A DNA stretch of 64,000 nucleotides from Candidatus Omnitrophota bacterium (GTDB lineage: Bacteria > Omnitrophota > Gorgyraeia > Zapsychrales > Zapsychraceae). Below are positions 4,981 through 26,300 of this stretch, one piece after another. Numbering within the stretch: position 1 is the stretch's first letter; each line of letters starts with the position of its first letter. Location of the stretch: positions 702,361 to 766,360 of the forward strand of contig JBFWOS010000001.1 of the NCBI GenBank assembly GCA_050250375.1. Direction: 5' to 3'. The notes beneath the pieces are model-generated. The model saw nothing but the letters and a program-made list of their open reading frames with translations. It did no database searches and was not told the origin of the DNA. Made by a program: the position numbers and the translations under genes.

Positions 4981-4989
4981 GCGGCGGCC

Positions 4990-8674: not shown

Positions 8675-8690
8675 GACCGACCAGTCGGTC
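8675..8690 (-). promoter_or_regulatory. TetR-type operator palindrome GACCGAC-CA-GTCGGTC, copy 2, downstream of tetR and upstream of the small ORF and methyltransferase
   Basis: 16-bp perfect palindrome. A near-identical copy sits in the tetR promoter at 9320-9334. Confidence 0.5.
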
Positions 8691-8709
8691 ACAACTGCCC
8701 AAAAAAATT

Positions 8710-9306: not shown

Positions 9307-9309
9307 GCT

Positions 9310-9346
9310 CTAAATATACGACCGACTGGTCGGTTTGTCAAGGGGT
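9310..9346 (-). promoter_or_regulatory. Sigma70-like promoter (TTGACA-17-TATATT) whose spacer holds the palindrome ACCGAC-tg-GTCGGT; predicted autoregulated, near-leaderless tetR promoter
   Basis: Read on the minus strand: cTTGACAaaccgaccagtcggtcgTATATTtagagcATG. Confidence 0.55.
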
Positions 9347-9435
9347 ATTTTAAAAAACTTTGCGGGAGGCGCGGGACAGGACGTTTGTCGAACATGGATA
9401 ATGACCAACTGCCCTCTACCTTACCTTTTCCACAT

Positions 9436-9906: not shown

Positions 9907-9929
9907 AAAAACGTGCCAGTTTGTGCCAG

Positions 9930-10490
9930 CTATCTATTTTCTTCAATCCAATCATGCGCAAGCTTATTAATTCGTTTAATCTGTTCTGGGGTTAAGCTTC
10001 GCATGATTTGATCTCGTAAACCACGGGCTCTCCATTTGGCCTGCATATCTGAAGATAGCTGCGTGTAAAACCGAGCAATCTCGAGCCAGAAATATGCTTT
10101 TTCAAAAGATTGTTCAATATTATCGCCGTCTCCATACATTACTGCCAAATTAATCATTCCCCTTGGATCTCCGGCATTGGCAGCCTCTTTATATAGAGAT
10201 ATTGCTTTTTCATTATCTTCTGCAACACCTAAACCCAAGTCATACATATAGCCTAAGTTAGTTTTCGCATATGATAAGTCCTGATCCACAGCCTTTTGAT
10301 AATACATAACAGCCTTCTCATAATCTTGCGGAACACCATCTCCAAATTGATATCTGCTTCCCATATTATTTAACCCAGCACCTTCTCCCATCGCCGCTAA
10401 TTTTTGATCCTCAGATAAACTAGAAGCAGTCACAGTTGCGCAGCCACTTAGAAGTAAAGAAAAAATTAACAAATAAATTTGCTTGCTCAT
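9930..10490 (-). CDS. Sel1-repeat lipoprotein
   Basis: Lipobox LLLSGC. Tandem Sel1-like repeats (GVPQDYEKAVMYYQKAVDQ, GVAEDNEKAISLYKEAANAG). Confidence 0.75.
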   Translation of the reverse strand: MSKQIYLLIFSLLLSGCATVTASSLSEDQKLAAMGEGAGLNNMGSRYQFGDGVPQDYEKAVMYYQKAVDQDLSYAKTNLGYMYDLGLGVAEDNEKAISLYKEAANAGDPRGMINLAVMYGDGDNIEQSFEKAYFWLEIARFYTQLSSDMQAKWRARGLRDQIMRSLTPEQIKRINKLAHDWIEENR

Positions 10491-10557
10491 AATATTTTAT
10501 CCTACACTTATACGATGGACACACCGCTTAAGTAGTGGCATTACATTACTTAACTAC

Positions 10558-10697
10558 TGGTCAATCCCCTTCAACTTCAAAAAATCGCGGACGGTTTGGA
10601 CGACATAATCCATCTGGTTCAATTCAAGGTCCTGGTGGATGCCGATATGGGTGCCGCGGGCGGAGCAGTATTCGGCTTCCCGGGACGTACTTAATTA
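10558..10697 (-). pseudogene. Relic of the last ~43 codons of a DegT/ColD-family gene, a diverged copy of the 3-prime end of the gene at 12222..13475
   Basis: Translates to EAEYCSARGTHIGIHQDLELNQMDYVVQTVRDFLKLKGIDQ*. The intact gene ends EAEYCAGHGTHIGIHQDIELNQLDYVAQTVRDFLKAKGINR*. About 80 percent nt identity over ~140 bp. In frame directly behind the Fic stop codon. Confidence 0.6.
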
Positions 10698-11894
10698 TTG
10701 ATTCAGTCCGCTGTCCTCTTTTAATGAGTAACTCGTGCTGCGGCCGCCGGCCGGGTCCTTAACCAAAACACCTTTTCCAACAAGATCAAGAATGTCCCGA
10801 TGAGCGGTATCCTGCGAACACTTGGTGATTTTCGCCCATTTTGAAGTGGTCAGTTTACCCTCAAAACTGTCAAACAACTTGTTGATCATTGTCTTCTGGC
10901 GTTCGTTAATGGATCCAGCCGGAAGAGAATCCCAGAAGCGCACCTTTTTGAACACACCGGACAATGTGGTTTCGGTTGTGTCCAGCGCCCGGCCCAAACA
11001 ATTTAAAAACCACACCAGCCACGCCGTGATATCAATGCCGTCTTTTGCGGCATGGATACTTTTCTGTGTCTTTTCAAGAATATCGTAATAGGCATTCCGT
11101 TCCTGCCGGATATGGTTCGACATGCTGTAAAAACGCTCCCGGCTGCCGTCGGCGCGCGCCAGCTGCATATCGGCAATGGCCCGGGCTATACGGCCGTTGC
11201 CGTCATCAAAAGGGTGAAGCGTCACGAACCACAAATGCGCGATACCCGCCTTGAGCACGGGGTCCAAGTCCTTCGATCCACCTGTGGTGAGCGAAGGCCT
11301 TCGACCTTGCGCAGGCCGAGCCGAACCATTGAACCAAGCCAGAAATTCCTTCGTTTCACTCTTGAGGCGGCCGGCTTCCGGCGCTTCATAATGGACCTTC
11401 TCCCGGCCAACAGGACCGGACACAACTCGCATGGGGCCATGACGGTCGTCGCGCCAGGCGCCAACGGTAATTTTATGCATTCCACTGTGTCCGGTCGGAA
11501 ACAAACCGGCCTGCCAGCCAAACATTCGATCCTGGGTAAGGGGCTTGTCGAAATTCTGAGTGGCATCGAGCATCATTTCCACCACCCCGTCCACGTGACG
11601 ATCAGACGGCACAAGCCCTCCAATGTCCATACCCAGCCTTCGCGCGATGGATGAGCGCACTTTGGCCGGATCAAGGACCTCCCCCTCAATTTCACTGCTT
11701 TTTAAAACGTCAAGAGTGAGCGTCTGTAAAACGGCCTCCGAACGCAAAGAAAATCCCAGCGTTTCCATGCGTCCGATCAATCGCCCCTGCCGGTTGCGCA
11801 CGGGACCTAATATCGACGTGATTTTTTCATGATCCCATGTAAACGTCGGCCAAATATCTAATTCATGGATGTATTTCATCCCGGTTCCCTTCAT
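10695..11894 (-). CDS. Fic-family protein (DUF4172-type N-domain, Fic core, C-terminal winged helix)
   Basis: Canonical Fic motif HPFDDGNGRIARA. The true start is probably the second Met (MKYIHELD, 11879), which is preceded by AAGGGAA. Confidence 0.9.
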   Translation of the reverse strand: MKGTGMKYIHELDIWPTFTWDHEKITSILGPVRNRQGRLIGRMETLGFSLRSEAVLQTLTLDVLKSSEIEGEVLDPAKVRSSIARRLGMDIGGLVPSDRHVDGVVEMMLDATQNFDKPLTQDRMFGWQAGLFPTGHSGMHKITVGAWRDDRHGPMRVVSGPVGREKVHYEAPEAGRLKSETKEFLAWFNGSARPAQGRRPSLTTGGSKDLDPVLKAGIAHLWFVTLHPFDDGNGRIARAIADMQLARADGSRERFYSMSNHIRQERNAYYDILEKTQKSIHAAKDGIDITAWLVWFLNCLGRALDTTETTLSGVFKKVRFWDSLPAGSINERQKTMINKLFDSFEGKLTTSKWAKITKCSQDTAHRDILDLVGKGVLVKDPAGGRSTSYSLKEDSGLNQ

Positions 11895-12221: not shown

Positions 12222-13475
12222 TTACCGGTTAATCCCCTTCGCCTTGAGAAAATCGCGGACGGTCTGGGCGACGTAATCCAGCTGGTTCAGCTCGATGTCC
12301 TGGTGGATCCCGATATGGGTGCCGTGGCCGGCGCAATATTCCGCCTCGGGGAATTCACCTTGTTTATGCCCCATAAAGCCGTAACTCGGGCACTGGGTCG
12401 GGATGGAGGAAAATAAATTTCTTGAGTCGATCCCCTGCTGTTCGATGTGTTGCACGAATTCGTCTTTCGTAAACGGGCAGTTTTCTTTCAGGATGATCGA
12501 GAAGGCATGCGGCCCGATTTTTTCATGTTCCTGTTCATGCAATGTGATAAAAAATTCCTGAAAATCCCTGAACAGGTTGATCAGATACAATAAATTCCGG
12601 CGGCGTTTGCCCAGGATATCCTGAAAGATGTCGATATTACCCAGACCGACAGCCGCTTCCATTTCGTTCATCTTGGCGGAAAAACCGATCCGCTGGAACT
12701 CAAATTTGTTGACGATGCCGTGGTTGCGCAGCGACTGCATGGCCTGGGCTTTTTTCTCGTCGTTGGTGATGATGATCCCGCCTTCAATCGTGGTCACGAT
12801 ATGGGCGGCGTAAAGGCTGAAGGCGGCCATGTCGCCGATCGAGCCGATCTTCTTCCCTTTATATTCCGCGCCATGCGCCTCGGCCGCGTCTTCGATAACG
12901 ATCAGGTTATGTTTCTTGGCGATGGCCATGATCTTATCCATCTCGGCCGGTTTGCCCATCAGATGCACGGGCATGAGGGCGCGCGTTTTTTGGGTGATCG
13001 CTTTTTCAATCAGGTCCGGATTGATATTCAGCGTGTGCCGGTCGACATCCACAAACACAGGCGTTAACCCGGCCTGCAGGACGGCATTGGCGGTAGCGAC
13101 AAAGGTCAGCGCCGGGATGATCACCTCATCCCCGCGTTGGGCGCCGTAATCATACAGCACCGCGCAGGCAATCGCGTCGGCGTCGGTCCCGCTGCTGACG
13201 GCCACGGCGTATTTCACGCCGAACAGTTTGGCGAAACGTTCTTCGAACTCCTGCACAAAACGCCCGCGCGTCAGCCATTTTGACCGCAACGCCTCCTGGA
13301 TCAGCTCAACGGAGCGGTCCGTCAGGGAAACGGTCCCGAACGGGACCTTGAAATCTTTCTTAGCCGACATGGCTGAACTATTTTCCATTCCTAAAGAACT
13401 CCATGGCTTTTTCGTAGCGCTCCGGCGTGCCGATGTCAAAAAATTCGCCTTTGGACTTAAACCCGTACAAACCAT
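12222..13475 (-). CDS. ColD/E1(DdhC, RfbH)-type PMP-dependent NDP-4-keto-6-deoxy-sugar 3-dehydrase
   Basis: DegT fold in which the Schiff-base Lys is replaced by His (FSLYAAHIVTTIEGG, cf. ColD/E1 FY.HHI.TMEGG). C-terminal Cys residues are present. The start is more likely an internal Met (13388 or 13370), because the track start overlaps the upstream gene by 98 nt. Confidence 0.8.
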   Translation of the reverse strand: MVCTGLSPKANFLTSARRSATKKPWSSLGMENSSAMSAKKDFKVPFGTVSLTDRSVELIQEALRSKWLTRGRFVQEFEERFAKLFGVKYAVAVSSGTDADAIACAVLYDYGAQRGDEVIIPALTFVATANAVLQAGLTPVFVDVDRHTLNINPDLIEKAITQKTRALMPVHLMGKPAEMDKIMAIAKKHNLIVIEDAAEAHGAEYKGKKIGSIGDMAAFSLYAAHIVTTIEGGIIITNDEKKAQAMQSLRNHGIVNKFEFQRIGFSAKMNEMEAAVGLGNIDIFQDILGKRRRNLLYLINLFRDFQEFFITLHEQEHEKIGPHAFSIILKENCPFTKDEFVQHIEQQGIDSRNLFSSIPTQCPSYGFMGHKQGEFPEAEYCAGHGTHIGIHQDIELNQLDYVAQTVRDFLKAKGINR

Positions 13476-14088
13476 CTTCGATCAGGGAGGGAAACACATC
13501 GTATTCCAACGAAAACTTTCCTTCTTCGGGCATCATCTCAAACACATCCTGGTTGAAACAATACCGCCCGGCGTTAATAAAGGCCGCGCCTTTGTCTTTT
13601 TTTTCTTCAAAGGCCAGGATCCGGTCGGAGTCGTCCATCGTCAGGCTCCCGTAGTCTTTGCTGTCTTCCATCCGCGCGGCCACCATAGACGCGGCCGCTT
13701 TCTTGGACCGGTGGAATTCGGCAAATTTCTTAAAGTCGACCTCGCAGTAACAATCCCCGTTTAACACAAAAAACGGATCGCTTTCAACGATGGGCTGGGC
13801 GTTCTTAACCGCGCCGCCGGTCCCGAGCGGTTCTTCTTCCCGGGAAAAATCGACGACGAAATCCCGGTCGTTCTTCCGGTAATAATCTTCGATCCACTGG
13901 GCCTTGTATCCGGTGCACAGGACAAAACGCTGAAAGCCCTGCTCATATAATTTTTCCATGACGATATCCAGAAACGGCCGCTCTTCAAACTGGACCATGA
14001 CCTTGGGCGTGTCGGGGTCAATGCTTCTCAAACGTTTGCCTAACCCGCCGCACAGGATAACGACATCAAGATTCTCCAGCATTGTCAT
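13378..14088 (-). CDS. Sugar-1-phosphate nucleotidyltransferase (HddC/GDP-heptose guanylyltransferase-like)
   Basis: VVILCGGLGKRLR nucleotidyltransferase motif. Start chosen at MTMLENLD because the track N-extension overlaps the kinase gene. Confidence 0.8.
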   Translation of the reverse strand: MTMLENLDVVILCGGLGKRLRSIDPDTPKVMVQFEERPFLDIVMEKLYEQGFQRFVLCTGYKAQWIEDYYRKNDRDFVVDFSREEEPLGTGGAVKNAQPIVESDPFFVLNGDCYCEVDFKKFAEFHRSKKAAASMVAARMEDSKDYGSLTMDDSDRILAFEEKKDKGAAFINAGRYCFNQDVFEMMPEEGKFSLEYDVFPSLIEDGLYGFKSKGEFFDIGTPERYEKAMEFFRNGK

Positions 14089-15076
14089 ATTCTCCGTTCG
14101 GTTGATAAAAAATAATCTGGCTGCCCAGGCTCTCGAATTCAAACGGTACCAGGAGCAAATCCTTTAATTTTTCCCTGACCTTCTTCTGTTTCTCCGGGGG
14201 GACAAATAATAATACGAACCCGCCTCCGCCCGCCCCGAGCAATTTTCCGCCGACCGCGCCGGACGCCTTGGCCGAGTCATAAATCTCGTCAATCATCGGG
14301 GTCGAAATCTTGTCGGAGAGTTTTCTCTTGATCTGCCAGCCCTCATCGAGGAGTTCGCCGAATTCTTTGAGCCGGTCTTCCTTGAGCAGTTCAAGCCCCC
14401 TGACCGCCATTGCGTGCATGGCCTTCAACTCCGGTTTCTTTTTGGGGATATTTTTAATCTGATGGGCCGCGATCACCGAGGCGGTCCGGGAAAACCCGGT
14501 AAAAAATAACATCAAATGGTCCTGAAACCGCTTCAAGCGGTCCGAGGGAATAATCACCTTGTTGACCTGCAGAAGCTGGCTCCCGCCGAATTCAATAAAA
14601 TTAAATCCTCCGTAAGCCGCCAGCGCCTGGTCCTGGCAGCCGACATTTTCATGGCACATCTGCTGTTCGATATAAATGGCCTCTTCCGTCAGTTTGGACT
14701 TGCTCGTCATCCGTCCCAGCAGGGCGTAAAGGCTGTTTAACAATCCGACGGTGAATGAAGAACTTGAACCCAGGCCGGTCCGGGCCGGCAAATCGCCGTC
14801 GTGGTGGATCTCGATCCCTTTATGGATGTCCAGGTATCGAAGGACTTCCCGCACGGCCGGGTGATCAATATCATTGATTTCGGAAACATGTTCCATCTTG
14901 GAGTAGATGATCCTGGACTTATGGTCGAAGAACGGCGGCAGGTACCGGCAGGTGATATAACAATATTTATTAATCGTCGTTGCCAGGACAGCCCCGGGGT
15001 TGTTTTCAAACCAGGCCGGATAATCCGTCCCTCCTCCGAAAAACGACATGCGAAATGGTGTGCGGCTGATGATCAT
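14066..15076 (-). CDS. GHMP-family sugar kinase (HddA-like D-glycero-D-manno-heptose 7-phosphate kinase / fucokinase-like)
   Basis: MIISRTPFRMSFFGGGTDYP N-terminus. GHMP motif PARTGLGSSSSFTVG. Confidence 0.8.
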   Translation of the reverse strand: MIISRTPFRMSFFGGGTDYPAWFENNPGAVLATTINKYCYITCRYLPPFFDHKSRIIYSKMEHVSEINDIDHPAVREVLRYLDIHKGIEIHHDGDLPARTGLGSSSSFTVGLLNSLYALLGRMTSKSKLTEEAIYIEQQMCHENVGCQDQALAAYGGFNFIEFGGSQLLQVNKVIIPSDRLKRFQDHLMLFFTGFSRTASVIAAHQIKNIPKKKPELKAMHAMAVRGLELLKEDRLKEFGELLDEGWQIKRKLSDKISTPMIDEIYDSAKASGAVGGKLLGAGGGGFVLLFVPPEKQKKVREKLKDLLLVPFEFESLGSQIIFYQPNGEYDNAGES

Positions 15077-16584
15077 ACCGGCTTCCTCTCCTCCAGGATT
15101 TTTCTCTTAAGTTTGATCGTGGTTGAACGGACCGTCTCATCATAGGCCGTCTGGCCGAATTTGGTTTTGAGCAGATCCAGGAATTGGCTGTTCGTGTGAT
15201 ATTTCATCCAGGCCTCGTCCCGGAAGGCGAGCACTTCCTGCGCCGAGAGATATTTCGTCGGCAGCGGCAGCTGATGATAGGAATGCTGGGAATACCCCGT
15301 ATACGTGTCCGGAAGTTTCCAGCCCTTTTCAAGCGCCATGCCGTACAGCGGACTGCCGGGGTACGCCATAGCCGAATAAAAATTGGCCTCTTCGGTGTTC
15401 ATCTCCATCGCCAGGTCCAGGGTCGTCTGCATGCTCTGGTGATCATCCTCGGGAAGGCCGAAAATGTAATTGGCGATGACGTTGATGTCATGCTCCCGGA
15501 TTTTCCCGACCACGTCCCTGATGTCGACATCTTCAAACCGGCCTTTGGTGACATCCTTGCGCACCCGGGTATTGCCGCTTTCGATGCCCAGGGCCAGCCA
15601 ATTGACACCGGCTTTTTTGAGGGTCTCGAGAAATTTTTCTTTGACCGTGTCCACCCGGGAATAACACCAGATGTTGAATTTGTATTTCCGTTCGATGATC
15701 AGTTCACACAGCTTCATAAAATGATTTGAGTTCAGGACGAACAGTTCGTCGGCGATCTTGATATTGGTGATCCCGCGTTTGGCGAGTTCATCAAATTCTC
15801 CAATGATGAATTCCGGGTCCCAGTAACGGAACACGGCACTTCCGTCGGAATACTGGTTTTCCTGCCGGTTGATGATGTTGATCATGCAAAACGAACATTT
15901 CATCGGGCAGCCGAGGCTGGTGTACAAGGCCGCGAACGGCTGGCGTTGGGAACCGTTCGGGTACGAATGCCACAGGCTTGTCCGGTAATTTTTCATCGGC
16001 AGTTTGTCCCAGGGAATACCCGGCAGTTCTTTGGGCAGGTCCGCCTTCTCGACGATCGGGGAGGGCGCGTTTAACACGACTGTTCCGTCCTGCCTGTATC
16101 CGAGTCCGGGAACGGCACTAAGTTTGTCTTTCAAATTGGTCTTAAGCAAAGTGGAAATCGTGTAAACCCCTTCGTTCTGGCAGACAAAATCGATGCACGC
16201 GTGATTCTCCAGCACTTCGCGGGATAACGCGGCGATGTGGCCCCCGACAAACAGAATCTTTACCTCCGGCAAGATATTCCTGAGCTCCTGCGCGAGCGCG
16301 ACGGCGCCTTCCATATTCTGCGAACTCGCGGACGGCTGCTGGCCGTAAACGACAAAACAGGCCACCTTCGGCTTTATCTCCTTGATCTTCCGGGCTGATT
16401 CTTCATCCGTTAAGTGCAGGGCCTCACAGTCGAGGATGTCCGCCGAAAACCCTCTCGAGAGACAGTGGCTGGTCAGCATACCGGCCCAGATCGGCGGCTC
16501 AATGGCAGAAAAATCTTTGCTTAAATCCTGGTAGATTTTATGCGAGGCATTGGGATGAACAAATAAAATATCAAGCTGTCCCAT
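15073..16584 (-). CDS. Cobalamin(B12)-binding radical SAM protein (class B rSAM)
   Basis: N-terminal B12-binding Rossmann-like domain (KILFVGGHIAAL). CPMKCSFC radical SAM cluster motif. 503 aa. 4-nt overlap with the kinase gene. Confidence 0.85.
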   Translation of the reverse strand: MGQLDILFVHPNASHKIYQDLSKDFSAIEPPIWAGMLTSHCLSRGFSADILDCEALHLTDEESARKIKEIKPKVACFVVYGQQPSASSQNMEGAVALAQELRNILPEVKILFVGGHIAALSREVLENHACIDFVCQNEGVYTISTLLKTNLKDKLSAVPGLGYRQDGTVVLNAPSPIVEKADLPKELPGIPWDKLPMKNYRTSLWHSYPNGSQRQPFAALYTSLGCPMKCSFCMINIINRQENQYSDGSAVFRYWDPEFIIGEFDELAKRGITNIKIADELFVLNSNHFMKLCELIIERKYKFNIWCYSRVDTVKEKFLETLKKAGVNWLALGIESGNTRVRKDVTKGRFEDVDIRDVVGKIREHDINVIANYIFGLPEDDHQSMQTTLDLAMEMNTEEANFYSAMAYPGSPLYGMALEKGWKLPDTYTGYSQHSYHQLPLPTKYLSAQEVLAFRDEAWMKYHTNSQFLDLLKTKFGQTAYDETVRSTTIKLKRKILEERKPV

Positions 16585-16587
16585 AAC

Positions 16588-16707
16588 TCAATACTGCCTA
16601 GTTAGTAGGGCACCCGCCAAAACTTTCTGTTTTGGCGAGGCCTCGCCCAATGAACAGCGTTCATTGGGCGGGTTAGGGTGAATAAATAGAATGTCTATCT
16701 GGCTCAT
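16588..16707 (-). repeat. Nested-palindrome element plus a relic duplicate of the first 12 codons of the rSAM gene
   Basis: Three overlapping perfect palindromes: GCCAAAAC-tttct-GTTTTGGC (16616-16636), GGCGAGG/CCTCGCC (16634-16647) and CGCCCAATGAAC-agc-GTTCATTGGGCG (16644-16670). Upstream at 16707-16672 is ATG AGC CAG ATA GAC ATT CTA TTT ATT CAC CCT AAC = MSQIDILFIHPN. The real gene starts MGQLDILFVHPN, and the differences are mostly at wobble positions. Confidence 0.5.
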
Positions 16708-16715
16708 CGGCTTGT

Positions 16716-17663
16716 TTAAACGTTACTGAGTTGGGATGTCACCTGCCGGACCTTCGGGATCACCGTGTAGCCTTTAATCAACTCGGTAATACCGTCCGCC
16801 AGGGAGACATCGGGCCTGAAGCCCGTCTTTTCAATTTTTTCATTACTGACGATATAATCCCTCTTATCAGGATCTTCGCCGGCATGGGATTCACTAAAAT
16901 TAAACCCGGGCACCTGTTTTTTGATTTCTTCGCACAGCTGCAACTTGCTGATATTCGCGTCACTGAGACCTACATTATAGGGTTCATCCTTCATCTTGTC
17001 AAAATGGTCGAGGGCATGCATGAACGCCTTGGCAATATCACGGACATGGATAAAATTGCGCATAAAATGGGCCTCAAACAATTCAACCGATCCGTCAAAG
17101 ACGGCCTTGTACGTAAAATCATTCACCAGAAGATCAAGCCGCATGCGCGGCGACACACCAAAGGCCGTGGCCAGGCGCAACGTGATCCCCTCTCCGGCTT
17201 CAAGGACCATCTGTTCGGCCTGGACCTTCAGCCGGCCGTAAACCGAGATCGGTTTTAACGGTGTTTCCTCCGTGCAGAACTTTCCTTTTTCCCCGATGCC
17301 GTAACCGCTGTTGGTCGTCGGATAAATGATCTTCTGTCCCGGACGGCGCAGTTTGATGATCTCCCTGAGGGCGTCAATTATAATTTCCTCGGCTTCTTTA
17401 GGATGACGGTCGCAGATCGGCGCTCCGGTCAGACACGCCAATGGAAAAACGGCATCGGCCTGCGGAACCAGCCGCTTTAACAACGCCGCGTCCCGCGTGT
17501 CGCCCCGGACAATGGCCAGGCCTTTATGGTGACAGCAGTCCAACAGCGACGTCTGGTTATACATAAAATTATCCAGCACCGTCACGTTATGCCCGGCCTG
17601 CAAAAGACGCGGGACCATAACCGACCCCAGATATCCGGCCCCGCCGGTGATTAATATATTCAT
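16716..17663 (-). CDS. NAD(P)-dependent epimerase/dehydratase (extended SDR)
   Basis: NILITGGAGYLGS Rossmann motif and YGRLK catalytic dyad. Start taken at MNILITGG, giving an ATGA overlap with the upstream gene. Confidence 0.8.
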   Translation of the reverse strand: MNILITGGAGYLGSVMVPRLLQAGHNVTVLDNFMYNQTSLLDCCHHKGLAIVRGDTRDAALLKRLVPQADAVFPLACLTGAPICDRHPKEAEEIIIDALREIIKLRRPGQKIIYPTTNSGYGIGEKGKFCTEETPLKPISVYGRLKVQAEQMVLEAGEGITLRLATAFGVSPRMRLDLLVNDFTYKAVFDGSVELFEAHFMRNFIHVRDIAKAFMHALDHFDKMKDEPYNVGLSDANISKLQLCEEIKKQVPGFNFSESHAGEDPDKRDYIVSNEKIEKTGFRPDVSLADGITELIKGYTVIPKVRQVTSQLSNV

Positions 17664-18592
17664 GTCGAAACCTCGTTTTTGTACCAATCGATTGTCTTTT
17701 GAATTCCAACGTTTAGATCTTCTTTAACCTTCAGCCCCAATTTGTTCATCCTGCCCGTATCCAACAGCTTCTGCATAACCCCATCCGGCATCGAACGGTC
17801 ATATGTAATCTGGCCTTTAAACCCGGTCAATCGGGCGATCAGCTGCGCCAACTCTTCAATGGTGATATCCTTCCCTGTCCCGATATTGACCACATCCTCA
17901 CCCGCATCATTTTTCAGCATAAACAGGGCCGCTTCGATAAAATCATCGACAAAAAGAAATTCCCGTCTCGCCTTCCCGGAACCGCCGACACTGACTTCCG
18001 GGCGGTTATTCCGGACCGCGTCGACAAATTTGTGGATCAACGCGCCCATGACATGCGCGGTCTTTAAATCCGTATCCGATCCCGGCCCGTACACCGTCGC
18101 GGGGATCATCACCGCCGTGTTCAGCCCGTACTGTTTCCGGAAACTGCGGGCGAGAGAAATACCGGCGATCTTCGCGATGGAATACGGCTCACTGGTCTTT
18201 TCCAGCGGGCCGGTCAGGATGGCGTCTTCGTTCATCGGCTGCGGGCATTCCCCGGGATAAACGCATGAACTGGCCAGATAGAGAATCTTTTTGGCTTTAA
18301 ACTTATTCGCCGCGTAAAAAATATTGCATTCGCTTTGAAGATTATGATAAATAAAGTCCGCAGGAGATTGTTCGTTCGCGGTGATCCCGCCCGACCGGGT
18401 CGATCCCAAAACCACATAGTCTGGACGGTGGGTCTGAAAAAAATCGTAAACCGATGCCTGGATGGCGGCGTTAAGCGCCAGGGCTGAAACGCTGAAGACG
18501 GATGGAAACCCCTGCGCGGTGAAATATCGGCAGAGCGCTTGTTCGATTATATCATTGTGCCCGACCAGTAATATCTTCGATGATTTGTCCAT
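17660..18592 (-). CDS. GDP-L-fucose synthase (Fcl/WcaG/ColC) homologue with a degenerate dinucleotide-binding motif
   Basis: Collinear with E. coli Fcl (PADFIYHNL, LASSCVYP, EPYSIAKIAG, NIGTGKDITIEELAQ, MPDGVMQKLLD). Catalytic S/C/Y/K/H are retained, but GxxGxxG reads GHNDIIE. Confidence 0.8.
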   Translation of the reverse strand: MDKSSKILLVGHNDIIEQALCRYFTAQGFPSVFSVSALALNAAIQASVYDFFQTHRPDYVVLGSTRSGGITANEQSPADFIYHNLQSECNIFYAANKFKAKKILYLASSCVYPGECPQPMNEDAILTGPLEKTSEPYSIAKIAGISLARSFRKQYGLNTAVMIPATVYGPGSDTDLKTAHVMGALIHKFVDAVRNNRPEVSVGGSGKARREFLFVDDFIEAALFMLKNDAGEDVVNIGTGKDITIEELAQLIARLTGFKGQITYDRSMPDGVMQKLLDTGRMNKLGLKVKEDLNVGIQKTIDWYKNEVST

Positions 18593-19131
18593 TATTTCCG
18601 GTTGTAATAATTCCCGTGTTCAATCAGCAGTGTCGGGCGGTTGTCTTTTCGTTCAAGGGCCTCTTTGTACGCCGGAAAAATATCTTCCGGTTCCTCAAGC
18701 TCAACTACATGGACCGTGGTCAGGAGCCGCCGGAAGGCCTCGGCATAATTCCCGACGTGCTGATGGCCGGGGTTGACCGGTTCATCCGGGCCGGTGGCCA
18801 CACGGATAATCACTCTGGGGACAAGCCGGTCCCCGCTGATCGCGGGTATTTTATCGAGCATGTTGGCCATATCACCCGTGGCCAGCAGTAAAAAATTCTG
18901 ACGCGGATAAACACTGATCGGAATATATCCGGCCAGCGCCATGCCGATGGTAAACTGCATCTGGAAACTCTCGTTGATCGGCATCTCAAGCGTCTTTTCC
19001 CGGGGCACATCCCGCAGGGTCTGGAACATAAACGTACCGGGTCCGGCGACCGTCTGCCCGACAAACATCGTATTCGGCTGCTGCGCCAGCCACTCCATGG
19101 TCCTTTTTAGTTCATCAAAATATTTCATCAA
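18592..19131 (-). CDS. TPP-enzyme Pyr-domain subunit (2-oxoacid dehydrogenase E1-beta / transketolase central domain-like), short form without the C-terminal E2-binding domain
   Basis: FVGQTVAGPGTFMFQTL...PINESFQMQFTIGMALAGYIPI resembles the E1beta N-domain. Only 179 aa. Confidence 0.6.
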   Translation of the reverse strand: MMKYFDELKRTMEWLAQQPNTMFVGQTVAGPGTFMFQTLRDVPREKTLEMPINESFQMQFTIGMALAGYIPISVYPRQNFLLLATGDMANMLDKIPAISGDRLVPRVIIRVATGPDEPVNPGHQHVGNYAEAFRRLLTTVHVVELEEPEDIFPAYKEALERKDNRPTLLIEHGNYYNRK

Positions 19132-19141
19132 TCAAATCCGT

Positions 19142-19756
19142 TTAAAATTTTATTTTCCAGCCCAGCCCGGAATGGGGGTATTCATTCTTGTATTGAAAAT
19201 AAATGATTTTCTTTTCGTATTTAGTCCCTTTAAACCACGGGTCAGGGCTTCCCCAGACTTCGCGGGTATCGGTCATGACGCTCAGACCGTTATCGCCGAC
19301 AATAAATTTGACAGGCAGATCAAAATTGACCGCGTATTTCACCGCTTCGTGAAAGATCCCTGTTTCCGCCGACATGTCCCCGCAAAAAAGAAAGGCACGT
19401 CCATTTTTCTTCTGGTTTTTCAGGCTCCAGGCCGTGCCCACGGCCGTGCCCATCAGGCTGCCGACAATCCCTGAACACAGGACTTTGTGTTCCGGAAAAC
19501 ACAGCGCGATGCTGTTCCCCTGAAGGATCGATTCTTTCAACGCATCCCGGGGAACACCTTTCAACAGGGCCAGTTCATGCGAGTCCCAGAACCCGAACAC
19601 AAAATCATCCGGCCCGATATTTTCTTCCCGGAAAATCCGGATCAGGGCATCTTCCCGCCCCGCCCTCAGATGGACCGGAGCGCGGATAACGCCCTGGGCG
19701 AAGATTTCAGCAATTTCCTTTTCGAAACTGATCAGATCGTCTTTAGTAATATTCAT
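19142..19756 (-). CDS. TPP-binding PP-domain subunit (E1-alpha / transketolase N-terminal-like), short form
   Basis: TPP motif GDMSAETGIFHEAVKYAVNFDLPVKFIVGDNG (GDG-x26-NN pattern). 204 aa. Confidence 0.65.
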   Translation of the reverse strand: MNITKDDLISFEKEIAEIFAQGVIRAPVHLRAGREDALIRIFREENIGPDDFVFGFWDSHELALLKGVPRDALKESILQGNSIALCFPEHKVLCSGIVGSLMGTAVGTAWSLKNQKKNGRAFLFCGDMSAETGIFHEAVKYAVNFDLPVKFIVGDNGLSVMTDTREVWGSPDPWFKGTKYEKKIIYFQYKNEYPHSGLGWKIKF

Positions 19757-19759
19757 TTG

Positions 19760-19918
19760 TTAAAAAATCGTGTAAATAAAAGGAGTCACCGCCGAAGTCT
19801 GAGCAAAAATGATCAGCAGACTTAAGATCACCAGAATAATGATGATCGGCGCGAGCCAATATCTTTTTCTGACCTTAAGAAACTCCCAGAATTCTTTTAA
19901 GATTGTAATTTTTGCCAT
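19760..19918 (-). CDS. SxtK-like small membrane protein (DUF5989-type), 52 aa
   Basis: MAKITILKEFWEFLKVRKRYWLAPIIIILVILSLLIIFAQ... is a single TM helix. Not in the ORF track because it is too short. Confidence 0.5.
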   Translation of the reverse strand: MAKITILKEFWEFLKVRKRYWLAPIIIILVILSLLIIFAQTSAVTPFIYTIF

Positions 19919-19920
19919 AA

Positions 19921-20466
19921 TTAAAATTGTTTGGTGTAGTGTTCCTGTTTAAACTCTTTAATTTCACGTTTGATCCAATAAGAATCCGCTTTCGGATCAA
20001 GCGCCCTGGTCAGATAATCCTTTTTCGCCATTTTTAAAAATAAGGCCACCGGTGTAAAAACCAGATAATACATCAATCCCAAAATGACGGCCGTTAAAAC
20101 ATGGCTGATCGCGTGCCCGCCCTTCATCCATACTTTGTAAACAGGCGCCAGCTGATCGACGTTAAGGATTGTCGTTATCAAAAATGCCGCGGCTATACAG
20201 AAAAACAACATCGGGAGCGGCGTCGGGTGGGACTGAAAAATCCGGAAAGCCGTAAATATCAAAACAAGGAATATCCAGGCATTTGCCTTCGGGGTCAGCT
20301 CGGAAGTCTTCGTCGTTACCCACAACACACCGGAAAAACCGGCCAGCAGGATCAGCACGGACACCGCACTAAAGCCAAGTTTATAGCTGTGAAAGCAGAT
20401 CAGGTACGGGATAATCAAGGACATCCCGTAACCATACACATATAAATCTTTTTTTTCTTTTTCCAT
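19921..20466 (-). CDS. SxtJ-like membrane protein
   Basis: Four predicted TM helices. Start chosen at MEKEKKDLYV, 1 nt after the carbamoyltransferase stop; the track extension overlaps the upstream gene by 146 nt. Confidence 0.55.
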   Translation of the reverse strand: MEKEKKDLYVYGYGMSLIIPYLICFHSYKLGFSAVSVLILLAGFSGVLWVTTKTSELTPKANAWIFLVLIFTAFRIFQSHPTPLPMLFFCIAAAFLITTILNVDQLAPVYKVWMKGGHAISHVLTAVILGLMYYLVFTPVALFLKMAKKDYLTRALDPKADSYWIKREIKEFKQEHYTKQF

Positions 20467-20467
20467 C

Positions 20468-22285
20468 TTAATCCAGAACCAGCGACATATTTTCTTTCTT
20501 ATACTTGTCCGACTTGGGCTGAAGGTTTTTATCCAGGATATAATTCTCAAGGACCAGGTAATCCATATCGGTGCACATAAAACACCGGTAGGCATCCTGG
20601 GGACTGCACACAATCGGCTCTCCCCTGATGTTGAACGATGTATTGATGATGACCGGGCATCCCGTCAGTTTGTCGAATTCCTTAATGATCTTGTAATACA
20701 ACGGATTGTCCGTTTCGTCAACCGTTTGTATCCGGGCCGAATAGTCAACGTGTGTCACCGCCGGAATGACGGAACGGCAGATTTTCAGTTTATCGATCCC
20801 GCTGGCCGACACTTTCTTCGATTCCGCGTTAATTTTCTTTTCGTTAACGTCCGCCACCATCAGCATGTATGGGCTGACCGTCGTATAATCAAAATACTCG
20901 GACACTTTTTCCTTAAGCACACTCGGAGCAAACGGGCGGAAGGATTCCCGGAACTTGATTTTCAAATTGATGATGGACTGCATCTTCTCGGAACGGGCAT
21001 CCCCGATAATGCTCCTGGCGCCCAGCGCTCGCGGGCCGAATTCCATCTTTCCGACGACCAGGCCGATCACCTTCTGATCATTGATCAAATGGGCGACCTT
21101 CAACGGCAGTTCGTCCGGATTGATACGGGTAAACGGCAGATTCTCCTGGCGTAAAAATTTTTCAATCTCTTCATTGTCGAAACGCGGCCCCAGATACGAT
21201 CCCCTTTGCAAATCATTGATCCCGTCCACGTCCCGCTTATTTTGTAAATATTGATACCAGATGAATGACGCCACCCCCAGGGCCCCTCCGGCATCACCGG
21301 CCGCCGGCTGGATCCAGATATTTTTGAACGGACCTTTTTTTAAAATCTTCCCGTTCCCGACACAGTTAAGAGCAACACCGCCGGCCAGACACAAATTGTC
21401 GGCCTTTGTCTGGGCATAAACATAGTTCGCCATCTTCAGCATAATTTCTTCCGTGACTTCCTGGATGGAACGGGCCAAATCCATGTGGTGCTGTTTCAAT
21501 TCCGATTCCGGGTCGCGGCGGGGATGGCCGAACAATTGGTGGAATTTTGAATTCGTCATCGTCAACCCGACGCAATAGTTGAAATAATCCATGTTCAGCC
21601 GGAACGATCCGTCATCTTTAATGTCGATCAGATTCTGCCTGATTAAATCTGTATACTTCGGCTCACCGTATGGAGCCAGCCCCATCACCTTGTATTCACC
21701 CGAATTCACCCGGAATCCCAGATAATACGTGAACGCTGAATAGAGCAGTCCCAAAGAATGGGGAAAATTAATTTCACCCAGAAGCTTGACGCCGTTGTCT
21801 TCACCCACTCCGTAACTGGTCGTGGCCCATTCACCGACGCCGTCCATCGTCAGGATCGCCGCTTTTTTAAAGGGCGACGGAAAAAACGCCGAAGCGGCGT
21901 GCGATTCGTGATGTTCGGTAAAAATGATCTCCCCGTCATAATTCAATTCACGAAGGAGAAGATCTTTGAGGAAGATTTTTTCTTTCAGCCAGACCGGCAT
22001 GGCCTTCAAAAAGGATTGGATGCCCAAAGGAGCGTAACTCAGGTAGGTCAATAGCAGCCGTTCAAATTTCAAAAAGGGTTTATCATAAAACCCCACGTAA
22101 TCCACCTCATCAATCGATATGTTCCCTTCCTTCAGACAAAATTCAACGGCGTTTTTGGGAAACGATTCATCGTGTTTCTTGCGGGTAAACCGCTCCTCCT
22201 GGGCCGCGGCGATGATTTCCCCGTCCCTGATCAAACAGGCCGCGCTGTCATGGTAAAATGCGGAAATTCCTAAAATATTAACCAT
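20468..22285 (-). CDS. NodU/CmcH-family O-carbamoyltransferase
   Basis: MVNILGISAFYHDSAACLIRDGEIIAAAQEERFTRKKHD and HHESHAASAFF motifs. 605 aa. Confidence 0.85.
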   Translation of the reverse strand: MVNILGISAFYHDSAACLIRDGEIIAAAQEERFTRKKHDESFPKNAVEFCLKEGNISIDEVDYVGFYDKPFLKFERLLLTYLSYAPLGIQSFLKAMPVWLKEKIFLKDLLLRELNYDGEIIFTEHHESHAASAFFPSPFKKAAILTMDGVGEWATTSYGVGEDNGVKLLGEINFPHSLGLLYSAFTYYLGFRVNSGEYKVMGLAPYGEPKYTDLIRQNLIDIKDDGSFRLNMDYFNYCVGLTMTNSKFHQLFGHPRRDPESELKQHHMDLARSIQEVTEEIMLKMANYVYAQTKADNLCLAGGVALNCVGNGKILKKGPFKNIWIQPAAGDAGGALGVASFIWYQYLQNKRDVDGINDLQRGSYLGPRFDNEEIEKFLRQENLPFTRINPDELPLKVAHLINDQKVIGLVVGKMEFGPRALGARSIIGDARSEKMQSIINLKIKFRESFRPFAPSVLKEKVSEYFDYTTVSPYMLMVADVNEKKINAESKKVSASGIDKLKICRSVIPAVTHVDYSARIQTVDETDNPLYYKIIKEFDKLTGCPVIINTSFNIRGEPIVCSPQDAYRCFMCTDMDYLVLENYILDKNLQPKSDKYKKENMSLVLD

Positions 22286-22413: not shown

Positions 22414-23268
22414 TTACTTCAGAACTATATCCAACATTTTAATATATTTAGGATTTAAAGGCGTGCCATCATTCTTAATTGATTGTGAAATATAAAGAAG
22501 CGCCTCTGCCTGTCCATACTTGTTTTCAGTCCGAGTTACCAAGTAAAGAGCAGTATCGAAATCTTGCTGATCACTGTAATATTTAATCATAGGAAGGGTT
22601 GTATCGCTCCAGAAAGAAGTATCTTGTGATAACATTACGACATCAGTAGCCTTTTTATACTCTTTCAGCCCACTGTATGCCCCCGCAATACCAAGTAAAT
22701 GGCCATTCGCGTAATTTCCTGTTTTAAATTCTTCAATCGCTATGCCAACTAATTCAAGAGCCATTTTATAATCACCGGTTTTTTCATACAAGGCGTGTGC
22801 AGTATTAGCTAAAGCGTACGGGTCTTTTTGAGAAGCCGTAACGGCTTCCTCGTATTTCCCACTTTTTACCAATAACTGCACCGTATCCCATTTTTTCTGA
22901 TAACTCGGTATAGATGTTACTAAATAGCTGGTACCCGTGGTATCCTTTTTATATCTAGCATAAAGTTCCATTAGCTTTTTATGTTTATCGTCAATTCCCA
23001 AATTTTTATACTCGTCCGCAATATTTTTTAATATAGATAACTTTTCTGGCACAAAGCTATAATCTGAATGCAATATCCAAAAAGAATAATTCAATAGCGT
23101 CGCTTTCGCATTCTCTCCTTCTATTGATTTAATAATCATACCGTTAACCGGCTTTGCGGATAGATTTGGTCTAACGTTCTTAATCGAGCGTCCCTCAAGA
23201 AAGACTAATGCGCAGTAAACCAAGAAGGCTCCCACAATAAACAAAAATAAAACAGCTAATTTCTTCAT
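22414..23268 (-). CDS. Hypothetical membrane-anchored protein with TPR-like helical repeats
   Basis: N-terminal TM helix. AT-rich gene. Confidence 0.45.
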   Translation of the reverse strand: MKKLAVLFLFIVGAFLVYCALVFLEGRSIKNVRPNLSAKPVNGMIIKSIEGENAKATLLNYSFWILHSDYSFVPEKLSILKNIADEYKNLGIDDKHKKLMELYARYKKDTTGTSYLVTSIPSYQKKWDTVQLLVKSGKYEEAVTASQKDPYALANTAHALYEKTGDYKMALELVGIAIEEFKTGNYANGHLLGIAGAYSGLKEYKKATDVVMLSQDTSFWSDTTLPMIKYYSDQQDFDTALYLVTRTENKYGQAEALLYISQSIKNDGTPLNPKYIKMLDIVLK

Positions 23269-23359
23269 TTTTCACCTTTTGTTTTCGATGTCTTTGTCTC
23301 AAGTTAAACACTTAACCCACCATAGCCAACAACTCCGCCAGTTGTTAATTGCCAAACTT

Positions 23360-26300
23360 CTACAAACAATTTCCAGATTCACTGCCTGCATTGATAGTAG
23401 CTGATCCACTGATACTACAATCTCCAACAGTGGCCGCTTGCATATGAAAATTATTTGTTACAGTAACTTCTGAAGCTGCACTTAAGATGGCGTCGTCACC
23501 ACCAATCATATCAAATGAATCCGCGGTAATCTCTGCTCCCAAATTTATTTTGACGTCACTTGTTGACGTTGACCCCGTTGAGATCATTGAAGCACCCTCA
23601 GTAACTGTGACTTCGGATTCTGTACCAATCTCCACCTGTCTGTCGGCGCTCATTTCGAGGCTGGCAGCGGTAATCGCCGAGCTAATGCCAATCAATGCCT
23701 TACTGTTTGAACTCGTTCCCGTTGAAATGATCTCAAGTTCATCGTCAACATCCAAAATCATACCTGGACCTGTAGAGGCCTCTTGATTTGCTTCAAGTCG
23801 AACACTACCCGCATGAATTGTTGAAGTCTGCCCCATATGGGCTTTATTAGTGGAAGAGGTGCCCAGCGATTTAATGAGAAGCGGCCCGTCAACGTCGACT
23901 TGGGCGTTGCTGTAGATTTGTGCTATCTTGTATGCTTGCAAGGTCAATTCCGTGGCATTAATCGTTGAATTTGAACCCAGCTCTGTATCCCCGGTTTCTG
24001 AAACTAACGTCACGAATGTCCCGTTGATTGTCATTCCGTTCGAATTTGCGACCCCGGTTCGCCCATCAATGCAAATCCTTTCACCTGTGAGAACTTTTCC
24101 GGTTGCTATGGTTACCTTACAGGGAGAATGAATGTCAATGTTATCCATCGTGACATTGTAGTTAATTGTTAAATTTCTGTAATAAGTTCCCGTATAATCA
24201 TAATCAACAAGATAGTCTTCCAACTGTGAATCATTTGTAACGGTCGTTGTTGATGAACAGGTAACGCCAACCAGGTAGTCAGTTTTTATAGTACATGGCT
24301 CTTGCATAGGGTCGTTAATTGTGATCGTCAAATCCGGTGATCCTGGTGCATCTTCCCTATTTCCAACTTGGTCGGTTGCTATAGTATAAAACGAATATGT
24401 AGAACCGTTTACACCGACGAAGGACGTGAACGTTCCCGTGGTGGTTAAGGTTTCAGCATACGGACCTGAGTTTTCAGATACATAGATGGTGTATTCTTTT
24501 ATCCCCGAATGCGCGTCACTTCCTGACCACGAAATGTCAAAACTGGTCAAAGTGCCCGTTGATGCCATACTGTTCATGGAACTGGACGGTTTTGTATCAT
24601 CAATGGTGTTCAGCCAGGTATTGGTGGTGATTGGACTATTAGTGTCAAAAACTATGCTCGCACTATTGATTATTTCATCATTTGTTTCTACTGAATCTTT
24701 CGCCCGCACGGAAAATGTCACAAACCCATCGCCTTCGGGAGGATTATCATTAGGCGGTAAGAATCCAGCATTCGGATCATCCGTAAACATATGTGACTCC
24801 GGATCAAGAGAAATAAATTTCCACACGACGTCACCGGAAGCTGTGTTTAATGCAACCTCTATCCTCAAGATTAAGTCATTGTCAGGTCGCAAATCTACCT
24901 CGGTTATAAACTCTTGAATTCCGCTAGGCAGATTGATTATTTTTTCCGCAACTCCAATAGGTCCTAATTCAAAAGTACTTAAATCCAGAACCGTTGTATC
25001 TAGTTGGTCCGAAACGATAACTTCCTGCGCGGGTGCGCTTGCCGATTCGATATTCTCAAAATAAATTATATATTGCAAAGGCTGTCGTTTAGCAATATAT
25101 TTTTCTGAACCAAAACCCTGCGGACCAACAATAGCGTTAGGGTCTCGTGAAGTCACAAGAAAAATTATTTTCGCTAACTTATTTGCACCCCACCAAAAAT
25201 CCCAAGCTGTACTAACAACTCCTGAAGTGAGTTCCCATGTCACAATAGCTTTATCTATTAGCTGATTAAGTTCAGTCCATTTCAATACTTCATTAAACCC
25301 ACAGGTCGCTTTGCCCAGAGTCTGACCACAAAGTGATATCCACGGTTGTTCCCTTTGTTCCACAACACCATTGACCAATTTTCCATACGTTAGCAAAGAA
25401 TAAAATCCCAAACAAGATGTGTCGTATGGCGTTTCGATAGAACATCCCGTACCATTTGAGCTCCATTCACAAAATGTAACATTCGCCATAAGCACGGGTA
25501 AATTTTCTCTAATCCTGGAAACTAATGCAGGCATTTCTCCTGGTCTAATAGGTCTCAGGCCATATAAATGTTCTATTTGTATAGTTTTCGTTCCACCTCC
25601 GGGTAAATCAATCGTAACTTCTCCATCCTTGATGTCATTAAAAGGTATCTCAACAGGTCCCACCCCTCTTAGATTTAGGTATGTTTTATCATCCAATCGT
25701 GTTCCAATATAACCTTCCCCTTCAGGTTTTATGCTGGAGAACTCAGAATCATATATATTAAACCAGTCCAGAATACCATCCGGGGCATCTTCATTCGCCT
25801 TGTACCTCTGATTGGCATATTTTAGAGTTGTTGAAGGATTATTTGTTGCAGTTAGCGAGTCAGGCAATGGAAGTGTATTGTTTGTTGGTTCAAAATGTGT
25901 GACATTGTCACCAAAGCCAAAATCAATCACAGTACTACCAAAATTAAGACTGATGTTTCCAGAAGATAACGACGATTTTATTCTAATGGGAAAACTACGA
26001 GATGAATGAACCGGCAAATTTGCAACTATAAAACCTGCAACTGTGTCTTCAGCCAAATTCTTAAATGAGTCTGAGAATTCTGGGATCAGATAATCGACCT
26101 CATCAGGTATACCAACAAATAATTCCGCTGAAGTAATATCATTGTTTCCAATATTTCCATATGTAACCAAATAAGTTTGCTCTCTGTCGGGACGCATGTC
26201 TGTTCTACCAATAATATCCATCCACAGCCCACTTGGTGCTCCATCTTCAACGGTAAAAGCATTTTCACTTGTTATGGTATTTCCGGAATTTATTATCACA

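Follow-up and report, generated by a model that had tools for sequence, protein, structure and literature searches.

The 64,000-nucleotide (nt) window analyzed here (GenBank assembly GCA_050250375.1, contig JBFWOS010000001.1, positions 702,361 to 766,360) comes from a Candidatus Omnitrophota bacterium. Its minus strand carries a gene cluster that includes a homolog of GDP-L-fucose synthase (Fcl) in which the NADPH-binding glycine motif is degenerate. GDP-fucose synthase is the textbook case of a bifunctional C3/C5-epimerase and C4-reductase. We refer to the homolog as the Fcl variant, and it is accompanied by the following genes.

17660..18592, minus strand: the Fcl variant, a GDP-fucose-synthase-like extended short-chain dehydrogenase/reductase (SDR) of 310 amino acids (aa) with the motif G-H-N-D-I-I-E, predicted to be an NADPH-independent epimerase.
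16716..17663, minus strand: Cj1427-type SDR with an intact GGAGYLGS motif, a predicted GDP-D-glycero-D-manno-heptose C4-dehydrogenase by similarity to PDB entries 6VO6 and 6VO8.
18592..19131, minus strand: E1β-like thiamine diphosphate (ThDP) enzyme subunit of 179 aa, Pyr domain only (Transket_pyr, 2.2e-8).
19142..19756, minus strand: E1α-like ThDP enzyme subunit, truncated, 204 aa, with the ThDP/Mg motif GDM-x26-DN (E1_dh, 8.5e-10).
15073..16584, minus strand: B12-binding radical S-adenosylmethionine (SAM) enzyme of 503 aa, assigned by profile match.
14066..15076, minus strand: GHMP kinase, HddA-like (heptose-7-phosphate kinase family), whose 141.5 bits miss the equivalog cut-off of 600.
13378..14082, minus strand: sugar-1-phosphate nucleotidyltransferase, HddC/ManC-like, with its start set by analogy with the 234-aa ortholog of a related locus, L001.
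12222..13391, minus strand: DegT-family protein with His in place of the Lys that binds pyridoxal phosphate (PLP) ('FSLYAAHIVTTIEGG'), a putative ColD-type GDP-4-keto-sugar 3-dehydratase.

Profile and structure comparisons place the protein firmly in the Fcl family. It matches the Pfam Epimerase family with an E value of 3e-45, and its residues 4-307 cover positions 2-304 of the NCBIfam equivalog profile for GDP-L-fucose synthase (NF047922), which amounts to an end-to-end match. Its 331.3 bits fall short of the curated 500-bit cut-off. Among solved structures, the best-scoring relatives are bacterial Fcl (GMER) proteins, led by 8DU0 (E 4e-70) and the E. coli enzyme 1BSV (E 1.7e-69). An AlphaFold2 model computed from 58 clade sequences has a pLDDT of 94.3 and a pTM of 0.92, and it includes both the Rossmann-type N-terminal domain and the C-terminal substrate domain of an extended SDR. 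The top Foldseek matches to this model are again GMER structures, with a TM score of 0.91 and 38% identity to E. coli GMER (1E6U). In the model, β1 spans residues 6-10 and helix αA spans residues 15-26. Given the confident model and its match to GMER, the scaffold is predicted to be intact, with Asp14 in the N-cap position of what is normally the pyrophosphate-binding helix.

Alignment of the variant with E. coli Fcl proceeds without gaps through the N terminus from residue 5 ('ILLVGHNDIIEQAL' versus 'VFIAGHRGMVGSAI'). The E. coli motif G-H-R-G-M-V-G becomes G-H-N-D-I-I-E, such that the first glycine is retained, G13 is replaced by Asp14, and G16 is replaced by Glu17. The start codon overlaps the stop codon of the upstream E1β-like gene by 1 nt (TAATG), and therefore no N-terminal extension is possible. 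For these reasons we rejected the possibility that the glycine motif is shifted rather than lost, which the sequence-only reading of this DNA had named beforehand as one of the observations that would overturn its interpretation. That reading had also described a protein collinear with E. coli Fcl that lacks GxxGxxG and keeps the catalytic Ser/Cys/Tyr/Lys/His positions. Collinearity is borne out by the ungapped alignment, the full-length profile match, and the TM score, the fold that it proposed to check is predicted with confidence, and all five residues are present (Ser108, Cys110, Tyr137, Lys141, and His180, equivalent to E. coli S107, C109, Y136, K140, and H179). Among the PDB matches listed, no characterized or solved homolog has a motif of the G-H-N-D-I-I-E type, and the printed alignments are canonical.

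The unusual motif is not confined to this protein. G-H-[N/D]-D-[I/V]-x-E is the pattern of the 120 best database homologs of the variant (55-80% identity). We compared 119 relatives in this identity range with 100 canonical-motif Fcl representatives from a 50%-clustered library, using E. coli numbering. Position 13 is Asp in 117 of the 119 relatives and position 16 is Glu in 116, whereas both positions are Gly in all 100 canonical proteins. The His residue of the resulting His-x-Asp-x-x-Glu pattern (His12 among the new pocket residues) is equally constant (117/119). Additional changes are co-fixed in the clade at positions that hardly vary among canonical Fcl proteins, including A63 to S, V66 to S, and P182 to G (118/119 each) and N165 to T (119/119), and A64 is changed to T. 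The mostly basic residue 36 of canonical Fcl is mostly lost. As is general for SDRs, the β4 'AAA' strand and the P-T-N loop are expected to help line the cofactor cleft, and Arg12 and Arg36 presumably take part in binding the 2'-phosphate in GMER structures. This role of the two arginines is given little weight, because position 12 is variable even among canonical Fcl proteins.

Residues associated with epimerization show the opposite trend to the glycines. The Cys109/His179 dyad is kept in every one of the 119 relatives, as are Tyr136, Lys140, Arg209, Lys283, Val180, and Asn72. The reductase residue Ser107 is relaxed in the clade (Ser in 56, Gly in 53, and Ala in 10) compared with canonical Fcl (Ser in 97 of 100). 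The guanine-stacking residue Trp202 is Trp in 108 of the 119 and Gly in the variant itself (residue 203) and in the relatives that are at least 75% identical to it (8 of 119). In family members that have been studied, S107, Y136, and K140 serve reduction, C109 and H179 serve epimerization, and a Val and the Trp form the guanine site (PMC7949155), whereas an Arg and a Lys contact the β-phosphate of GDP (PMC12362431). The motif degeneracy is a fixed trait of this family, and not a chance event or a peculiarity of a single gene. The overall conservation pattern is consistent with an epimerase that no longer reduces its substrate, and we infer that NADPH binding has been lost in the variant.

The gene is under purifying selection, with a ratio of nonsynonymous to synonymous substitution rates (dN/dS) relative to a 79%-identical ortholog of 0.11 for the whole gene and 0.15 for codons 1-60. 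The unusual motif alone might suggest a decaying pseudogene, or an artefact of assembly or sequencing. We rejected this explanation, whose probability is negligible, given the intact open reading frame (ORF), the evidence for selection, and the recurrence of the motif in more than 100 independent metagenomic relatives. In addition, a protein identical to the variant is on record from an independent source, the 1.2-Mb contig of a Candidatus Omnitrophota metagenome-assembled genome (MAG).

Another explanation is that the protein remains an NAD(P)H-dependent epimerase/reductase, such as an Fcl- or ColC-like GDP-L-heptose synthase, that binds its cofactor in a noncanonical manner. This would agree with the full SDR fold kept at high model confidence, with the invariance of Tyr136 and Lys140, with the retention of Ser107 in the variant itself, and with public databases, where members of the clade are often named 'GDP-L-fucose synthase'. 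However, both glycines that contact the pyrophosphate are acidic in more than 97% of clade members. The β4 'AAA' strand, V66, and N165 have changed along with them, Ser107 has become Gly or Ala in about half of the clade, the profile score, at 331 bits, lies under the 500-bit cut-off, and the motif is unseen among the characterized or solved homologs noted above. Moreover, C4 reduction would destroy the electrophile required by the ThDP enzyme that is co-conserved with the variant (see below). We therefore regard a retained cofactor as unlikely. The variant is a true Fcl homolog that falls outside the GDP-L-fucose synthases by score, by cofactor motif, and by genomic partner (no gene for Gmd, the pathway partner of Fcl, was found within the 64-kb window), yet its active site retains the epimerase half.

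Gene linkage provides a second line of evidence. We examined 20 loci that carry degenerate-motif Fcl-like genes, nine found by protein look-up (L001-L009) and 11 by a scan of GTDB species genomes. All 20 share a single module comprising E1α/E1β, the Fcl-like protein, a Cj1427-type SDR, a B12 radical-SAM enzyme, and HddA-like, HddC-like, and ColD-type proteins. Each of the nine look-up loci has the E1α-E1β-Fcl arrangement and a Cj1427-like SDR gene, the kinase was not seen in L004, the nucleotidyltransferase and DegT genes are present except in L006, and the radical-SAM gene is found in all but L007. Six loci from members of the clade, including L001 and L002 (79% identical), have the shared order E1α, E1β, Fcl variant, Cj1427-like SDR, and radical-SAM enzyme. 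The kinase gene comes next in all of these but L004, and the nucleotidyltransferase and DegT genes are found in all but L006, where the contig ends just past the kinase and the remaining genes are beyond reach.

The GTDB scan yielded 80 loci. All 11 genes with a noncanonical motif have E1α/E1β genes and/or a Cj1427-like SDR gene within 4 kb, compared with only one of the 69 genes with a canonical motif, and this by a weak match (Fisher p ~1e-12, uncorrected for phylogeny). The 11 loci are from Omnitrophota MAGs and from three MAGs labelled Planctomycetales. A contrasting example is a locus from an Alphaproteobacteria MAG (L064), in which a canonical Fcl-like gene (GHRGLIG) accompanies genes for an HddA-like kinase, a nucleotidyltransferase, and a DegT protein, and no E1α/β pair is present. 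This locus probably encodes a standard NADPH-dependent reductase pathway for GDP-heptose.

The spacing between the E1β gene and that of the Fcl variant ranges from -4 to +35 nt in all 17 loci where both were found. The junction with the SDR gene is less constant. It is an ATGA overlap of stop and start codons in the window, and a 4-nt overlap in L001, L008, L013, and L014, but L004 (through a 3-kb insert) and L011 have 3 kb between the two genes, L018 has 1.5 kb, and in L009 the SDR gene lies upstream. For the Fcl variant, linkage is conserved best with the ThDP E1β gene on its upstream side rather than with the SDR gene that follows it.

The same module is present in remote lineages, with the Fcl-like gene directly after E1β, as represented by P0138 (STLSLIG), P0132 (GEGDFIE), and P0147 (GAETLIG). 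In a neighbor-joining tree built without the first 19 residues, the majority of degenerate-motif proteins group in a single clade and a few others in another, and P0147 is on a separate branch. These sequences bear on the idea that the dinucleotide pocket has been re-purposed, with His12, Asp14, and Glu17 binding a metal or another ligand and the protein carrying out a different type of keto-sugar chemistry. The replacement residues are indeed conserved rather than drifting (His and Asp in 117 and Glu in 116 of the 119). However, no homology to a metal site was found, no test aimed at it being made, and other lineages in an equivalent gene context have broken the motif in different ways (GDKSIIG, STLSLIG, and GAETLIG), which argues for loss and not for a single specific new site. 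We consider such a re-purposed pocket very unlikely.

The partner most tightly linked to the Fcl variant has the hallmarks of an αKADH2-type enzyme. The genes at 19142..19756 and 18592..19131 supply an E1α PP domain and an E1β Pyr domain, and the GDM-x26-DN motif was read directly from the E1α-like translation. A full-length ortholog of the E1β subunit, in L004, matches pyruvate dehydrogenase (PDH) E1β with an E value of 4e-78. In the window and in L001, L003, L005, and L008, the pair is minimal, in that E1β has no Transketolase_C domain and the C-terminal third of E1α is missing. Full-length pairs (320-335 and 346-347 aa) occur in L004, L006, L007, and L009, as at L004 7826..10001 and L007 7934..9993. 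Since both versions occur at equivalent loci, both architectures persist in one module.

The position of the Fcl variant invariably right after E1β, with the stop and start codons overlapping in many cases, could indicate a noncatalytic scaffold or pseudoenzyme that stabilizes the minimal E1α/β or channels intermediates between it and the dehydrogenase. Subunits truncated to 204 and 179 aa, as in many loci, might need such a partner. However, the Fcl variant is equally present with full-length E1α/β (L004, L006, L007, and L009), and its Cys/His dyad, Tyr/Lys pair, and GDP-phosphate ligands are invariant in the 119 members and in the remote lineages. This makes a purely structural role improbable, slightly more so than a retained cofactor.

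The SDR encoded downstream is closely similar to PDB entries 6VO6/6VO8 over residues 2-302 (E 2.3e-112, ~378 bits), the former of which we take to be C. jejuni Cj1427. With full-length similarity and an intact NAD motif, it is predicted to act as a Cj1427-type dehydrogenase. Cj1427 oxidizes C4 of GDP-D-glycero-α-D-manno-heptose with tightly bound NAD(H), and the NADH is re-oxidized in a ping-pong reaction with α-ketoglutarate as the acceptor (PMC10680097). The sequence-only reading had noted the ATGA overlap with this intact GGAGYLGS protein, which we also read in the sequence, and had offered two interpretations. Either epimerase and reductase functions are split between the two proteins, or the Fcl-like protein is a pure epimerase.

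Under the first interpretation, the Fcl variant would epimerize, the SDR or its tightly bound NADH would reduce C4, and the pair would correspond to one Fcl. The overlapping genes in the window and in L001, L008, L013, and L014 fit this proposal, and because the NADH of Cj1427 needs re-oxidation (PMC10680097), re-reduction of an epimerized 4-keto sugar is chemically conceivable. However, the SDR resembles a demonstrated C4 oxidizer that uses α-ketoglutarate, and its adjacency to the Fcl variant is lost in L004, L009, L011, and L018. Moreover, neither the universally linked ThDP enzyme nor the ColD-type dehydratase would have a keto substrate. A divided Fcl is about as doubtful as a retained cofactor, and the idea of a complementary reductase found no support, because the SDR is predicted to create the 4-keto group. 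The second interpretation fared better. It is supported by the invariant dyad, the relaxed Ser107, and the fixed acidic residues, and also by work of Menon et al., as cited in PMC12362431, according to which GDP-fucose synthase epimerizes C3 and C5 without NADPH. This epimerization is acid/base catalysis beside the 4-keto group, and only the final reduction needs the cofactor.

A second enzyme that would act on a keto sugar is the DegT-family protein. Its sequence 'FSLYAAHIVTTIEGG' aligns with 'FSFFGNKIITTGEGG' of perosamine synthase, and its best matches are GDP-perosamine synthases. The Lys-to-His change is found in 8 of 8 co-located orthologs, and four conserved Cys columns indicative of a [2Fe-2S] motif were not found among these eight proteins. 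A Lys-to-His replacement is the signature of nucleotide-sugar 3-dehydratases, and without an Fe-S motif the ColD type is indicated (PMC8987622). We therefore rejected both a 4-aminotransferase that consumes the keto sugar and an E1/SpnQ-type Fe-S dehydratase, and conclude that this protein probably serves as a ColD-type 3-dehydratase for a GDP-heptose. A second DegT protein, encoded at 4990..6090, retains the Lys.

Two additional genes in the window are relevant to heptose metabolism.

3611..4219, minus strand: GmhB-like heptose 1,7-bisphosphate phosphatase (139 bits, missing the cut-off of 178).
6087..7169, minus strand: GT9 heptosyltransferase-like glycosyltransferase (130 bits, missing the cut-off of 134.6).

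The GmhB-like phosphatase supports a heptose pathway, and the substrate of the Fcl variant is likely to be a GDP-heptose derivative rather than GDP-4-keto-6-deoxymannose. The locus is flanked by lptD, a ROK gene, two NDP-sugar dehydrogenase genes, and housekeeping genes. Neither a cupin/RmlC-type epimerase nor an obvious NADPH-type 4-reductase is found in the cluster. With a separate maker of the 4-keto group, a ColD-like dehydratase, no cupin or 4-reductase, and a constantly associated ThDP enzyme, we propose that the Fcl variant is the epimerase of the pathway.

Our favored model, which we hold to be somewhat more probable than its negation, is that the Fcl variant is an NADPH-independent acid/base C5 (or C3/C5) epimerase of a GDP-4-keto-(3-deoxy)heptose that feeds ThDP-dependent C-branching. 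The HddA-like kinase, GmhB-like phosphatase, and HddC-like transferase would produce GDP-D-glycero-D-manno-heptose, the Cj1427-type SDR would oxidize C4, and the ColD-type His-variant DegT protein would remove the 3-OH group. The Fcl variant would then use Cys110 and His180 to invert C5 (or C3 and C5) beside the keto group. Since it would be unable to reduce, the 4-keto group would be left intact for attack by the ThDP-bound acyl anion of E1α/β, yielding a C4-branched heptose. Loss of NADPH binding would thus be adaptive, because it would protect the carbonyl needed by the ThDP enzyme. Finally, the radical-SAM enzyme (possibly by C-methylation), an aminotransferase, and a carbamoyltransferase would tailor the sugar for a cell-envelope glycan.

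Several of these steps have precedents. PDH-E1α/β-like enzymes transfer two carbons from pyruvate, as a branch, to C3 or C4 of sugar nucleotides that bear a keto group (PMC4802897, PMC12247030), and in the paulomycose pathway a 3,5-epimerase step comes directly before C4-branching by such an enzyme (PMC4802897). By this precedent, the E1α/β pair might transfer an acyl group from a 2-oxo acid to a keto-sugar nucleotide. In the C. jejuni HS:5 pathway, a C3-dehydratase step is followed by a C5-epimerase (PMC10680097). Inversion of C5 of a GDP-3-deoxy-4-keto-heptose by the Fcl variant is suggested by analogy with HS:5 and with ColD/ColC.

Some observations weigh against this model. Cofactor loss is predicted from sequence for all members of the clade. 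The nicotinamide ribose is normally held by Tyr136 and Lys140, which an NAD(P)-free enzyme does not obviously require and whose invariance would also fit retained binding of a nicotinamide cofactor. Likewise, the strong conservation of His-x-Asp-x-x-Glu means that the pocket may have a new function rather than being merely filled. Nucleotide binding may differ in the subgroup to which the variant belongs, because Trp202 is Gly there. A heptose substrate is probable rather than proven, because the HddA-, HddC-, and GmhB-like proteins score below their equivalog cut-offs, and the ColD-like step may precede or follow that of the Fcl variant. Also, the association statistics are inflated by shared ancestry, given that most loci are from Omnitrophota.

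A broader conjecture, to which we assign only a small chance of being correct, is that Omnitrophota and related uncultivated bacteria make an undescribed C4-branched 3-deoxy higher sugar from GDP-heptose for the outer membrane. A minimal two-domain ThDP enzyme would be fed directly by a cofactor-less SDR-fold epimerase. In the latter, the His-x-Asp-x-x-Glu pattern would form a new functional site, such as a docking or metal site, that couples the Fcl variant to the ThDP enzyme and so channels the unstable 4-keto intermediate.

The proposed activity can be compared with those of several known enzymes. E. coli Fcl (WcaG, GMER) and human GDP-fucose synthase (TSTA3) have the closest solved fold, are collinear over their full length, and share the Cys/His dyad, the Tyr/Lys pair, and the GDP-phosphate ligands. 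In contrast, the Fcl variant has the motif G-H-N-D-I-I-E, the β4, N165, and P182 changes, no Gmd neighbor, and a heptose/ThDP cluster, and it is predicted to be nonreducing. ColC likewise follows a ColD-type 3-dehydratase and inverts C5 of a 3-deoxy-4-keto GDP-sugar (PMC8987622). It differs in being NAD(P)H-dependent and in ending with C4 reduction.

The C. jejuni proteins DdahC, MlghC, and Cj1428 are SDRs of the GDP-fucose synthase family that act on GDP-4-keto-heptoses and are structural neighbors of the variant, and the gene for Cj1428 adjoins that for a Cj1427-type dehydrogenase. However, these enzymes have kept NADPH and reductase function and have lost the Cys/His dyad and epimerase activity (PMC7949155), making them the mirror image of what is proposed for the Fcl variant. 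RmlC-like cupin epimerases (Cj1430/MlghB/DdahB and Plm42) perform the cofactor-free epimerization beside a 4-keto group that we propose here, but their fold and catalytic residues are unrelated. GDP-mannose 3,5-epimerase (GME) is a weaker homolog (E ~1e-13) that also combines an SDR fold with a Cys-based acid/base pair for GDP-sugar epimerization. Unlike GME, which uses tightly bound NAD+ for transient oxidation of C4, the Fcl variant would receive a substrate already oxidized by a separate dehydrogenase. A literature search covering cofactor-less Fcl-like epimerases, clusters that combine heptose, ThDP, and radical-SAM genes, and lipopolysaccharide heptoses of Omnitrophota found no relevant description.

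Other features of these loci were noted. The 131-nt spacer between the genes for the Cj1427-like SDR and the radical-SAM enzyme (16585..16715, minus strand) carries a 39-codon ORF (MSQIDILFIHPNPPNERCSLGEASPKQKVLAGALLTRQY), whose first 12 residues repeat the N terminus of the radical-SAM protein (MGQLDILFVHPN). This ORF is conserved in L001 (11890..12010). The spacer RNA is predicted to form two long hairpins (-53.7 kcal/mol, z -6.0), and an Rfam search of this structured region gave no match. The element could be a leader peptide or attenuator, or an insertion scar.

Genes for a NodU/CmcH-type carbamoyltransferase (605 aa) and then an SxtJ-like membrane protein occupy 19756..22285 on the minus strand, and L001 adds a DUF5989 mini-protein. 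In its organization, the set resembles sxtI/J/K from the saxitoxin clusters. This set is located directly upstream of the ThDP genes in the window and in L001 and L002, and downstream of them in L005, which suggests that the sugar made by the cluster is carbamoylated. Relative to the syntenic L001, the cluster is broken by two inserts (7272..11894 and 22414..28135). One includes SAM-methyltransferase-like, TetR-like, and Fic/DOC-like genes, assigned by eye, and the other codes for a 284-aa protein and a 1591-aa secreted protein with Gly-repeat (β-helix-like) segments. A far more elaborate version of the pathway is evident in L007 (STLSLIG), where six or seven radical-SAM genes and a TylF-type methyltransferase gene surround the core module (1..7000 and 14851..19472). 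Also found around the core are two SDRs of the KR type and another split transketolase pair, the second in this locus.

The clade appears to consist of GDP-fucose synthase relatives that lack the NADPH motif and that would function in an uncharacterized, conserved pathway. If our model is correct, the protein would be the first natural epimerase-only descendant of GDP-fucose synthase, whereas the heptose pathways of Campylobacter include known descendants that only reduce. It would also demonstrate that an SDR scaffold can persist for acid/base chemistry after the loss of its cofactor. More than 100 database entries of this clade carry, or are at risk of receiving, the label 'GDP-L-fucose synthase', which is probably wrong. 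The Fcl variant marks a conserved, unstudied nucleotide-sugar pathway encoded near lptD in a phylum without cultured representatives. Its proposed enzymes include a dehydrogenase of the Cj1427 type and a ColD-type dehydratase, together with the ThDP-dependent E1α/β enzyme and a radical-SAM enzyme that binds B12. From this combination we predict that the cell envelope of these bacteria contains a new branched heptose, and the pathway may offer new enzymes for making tertiary-alcohol sugars.

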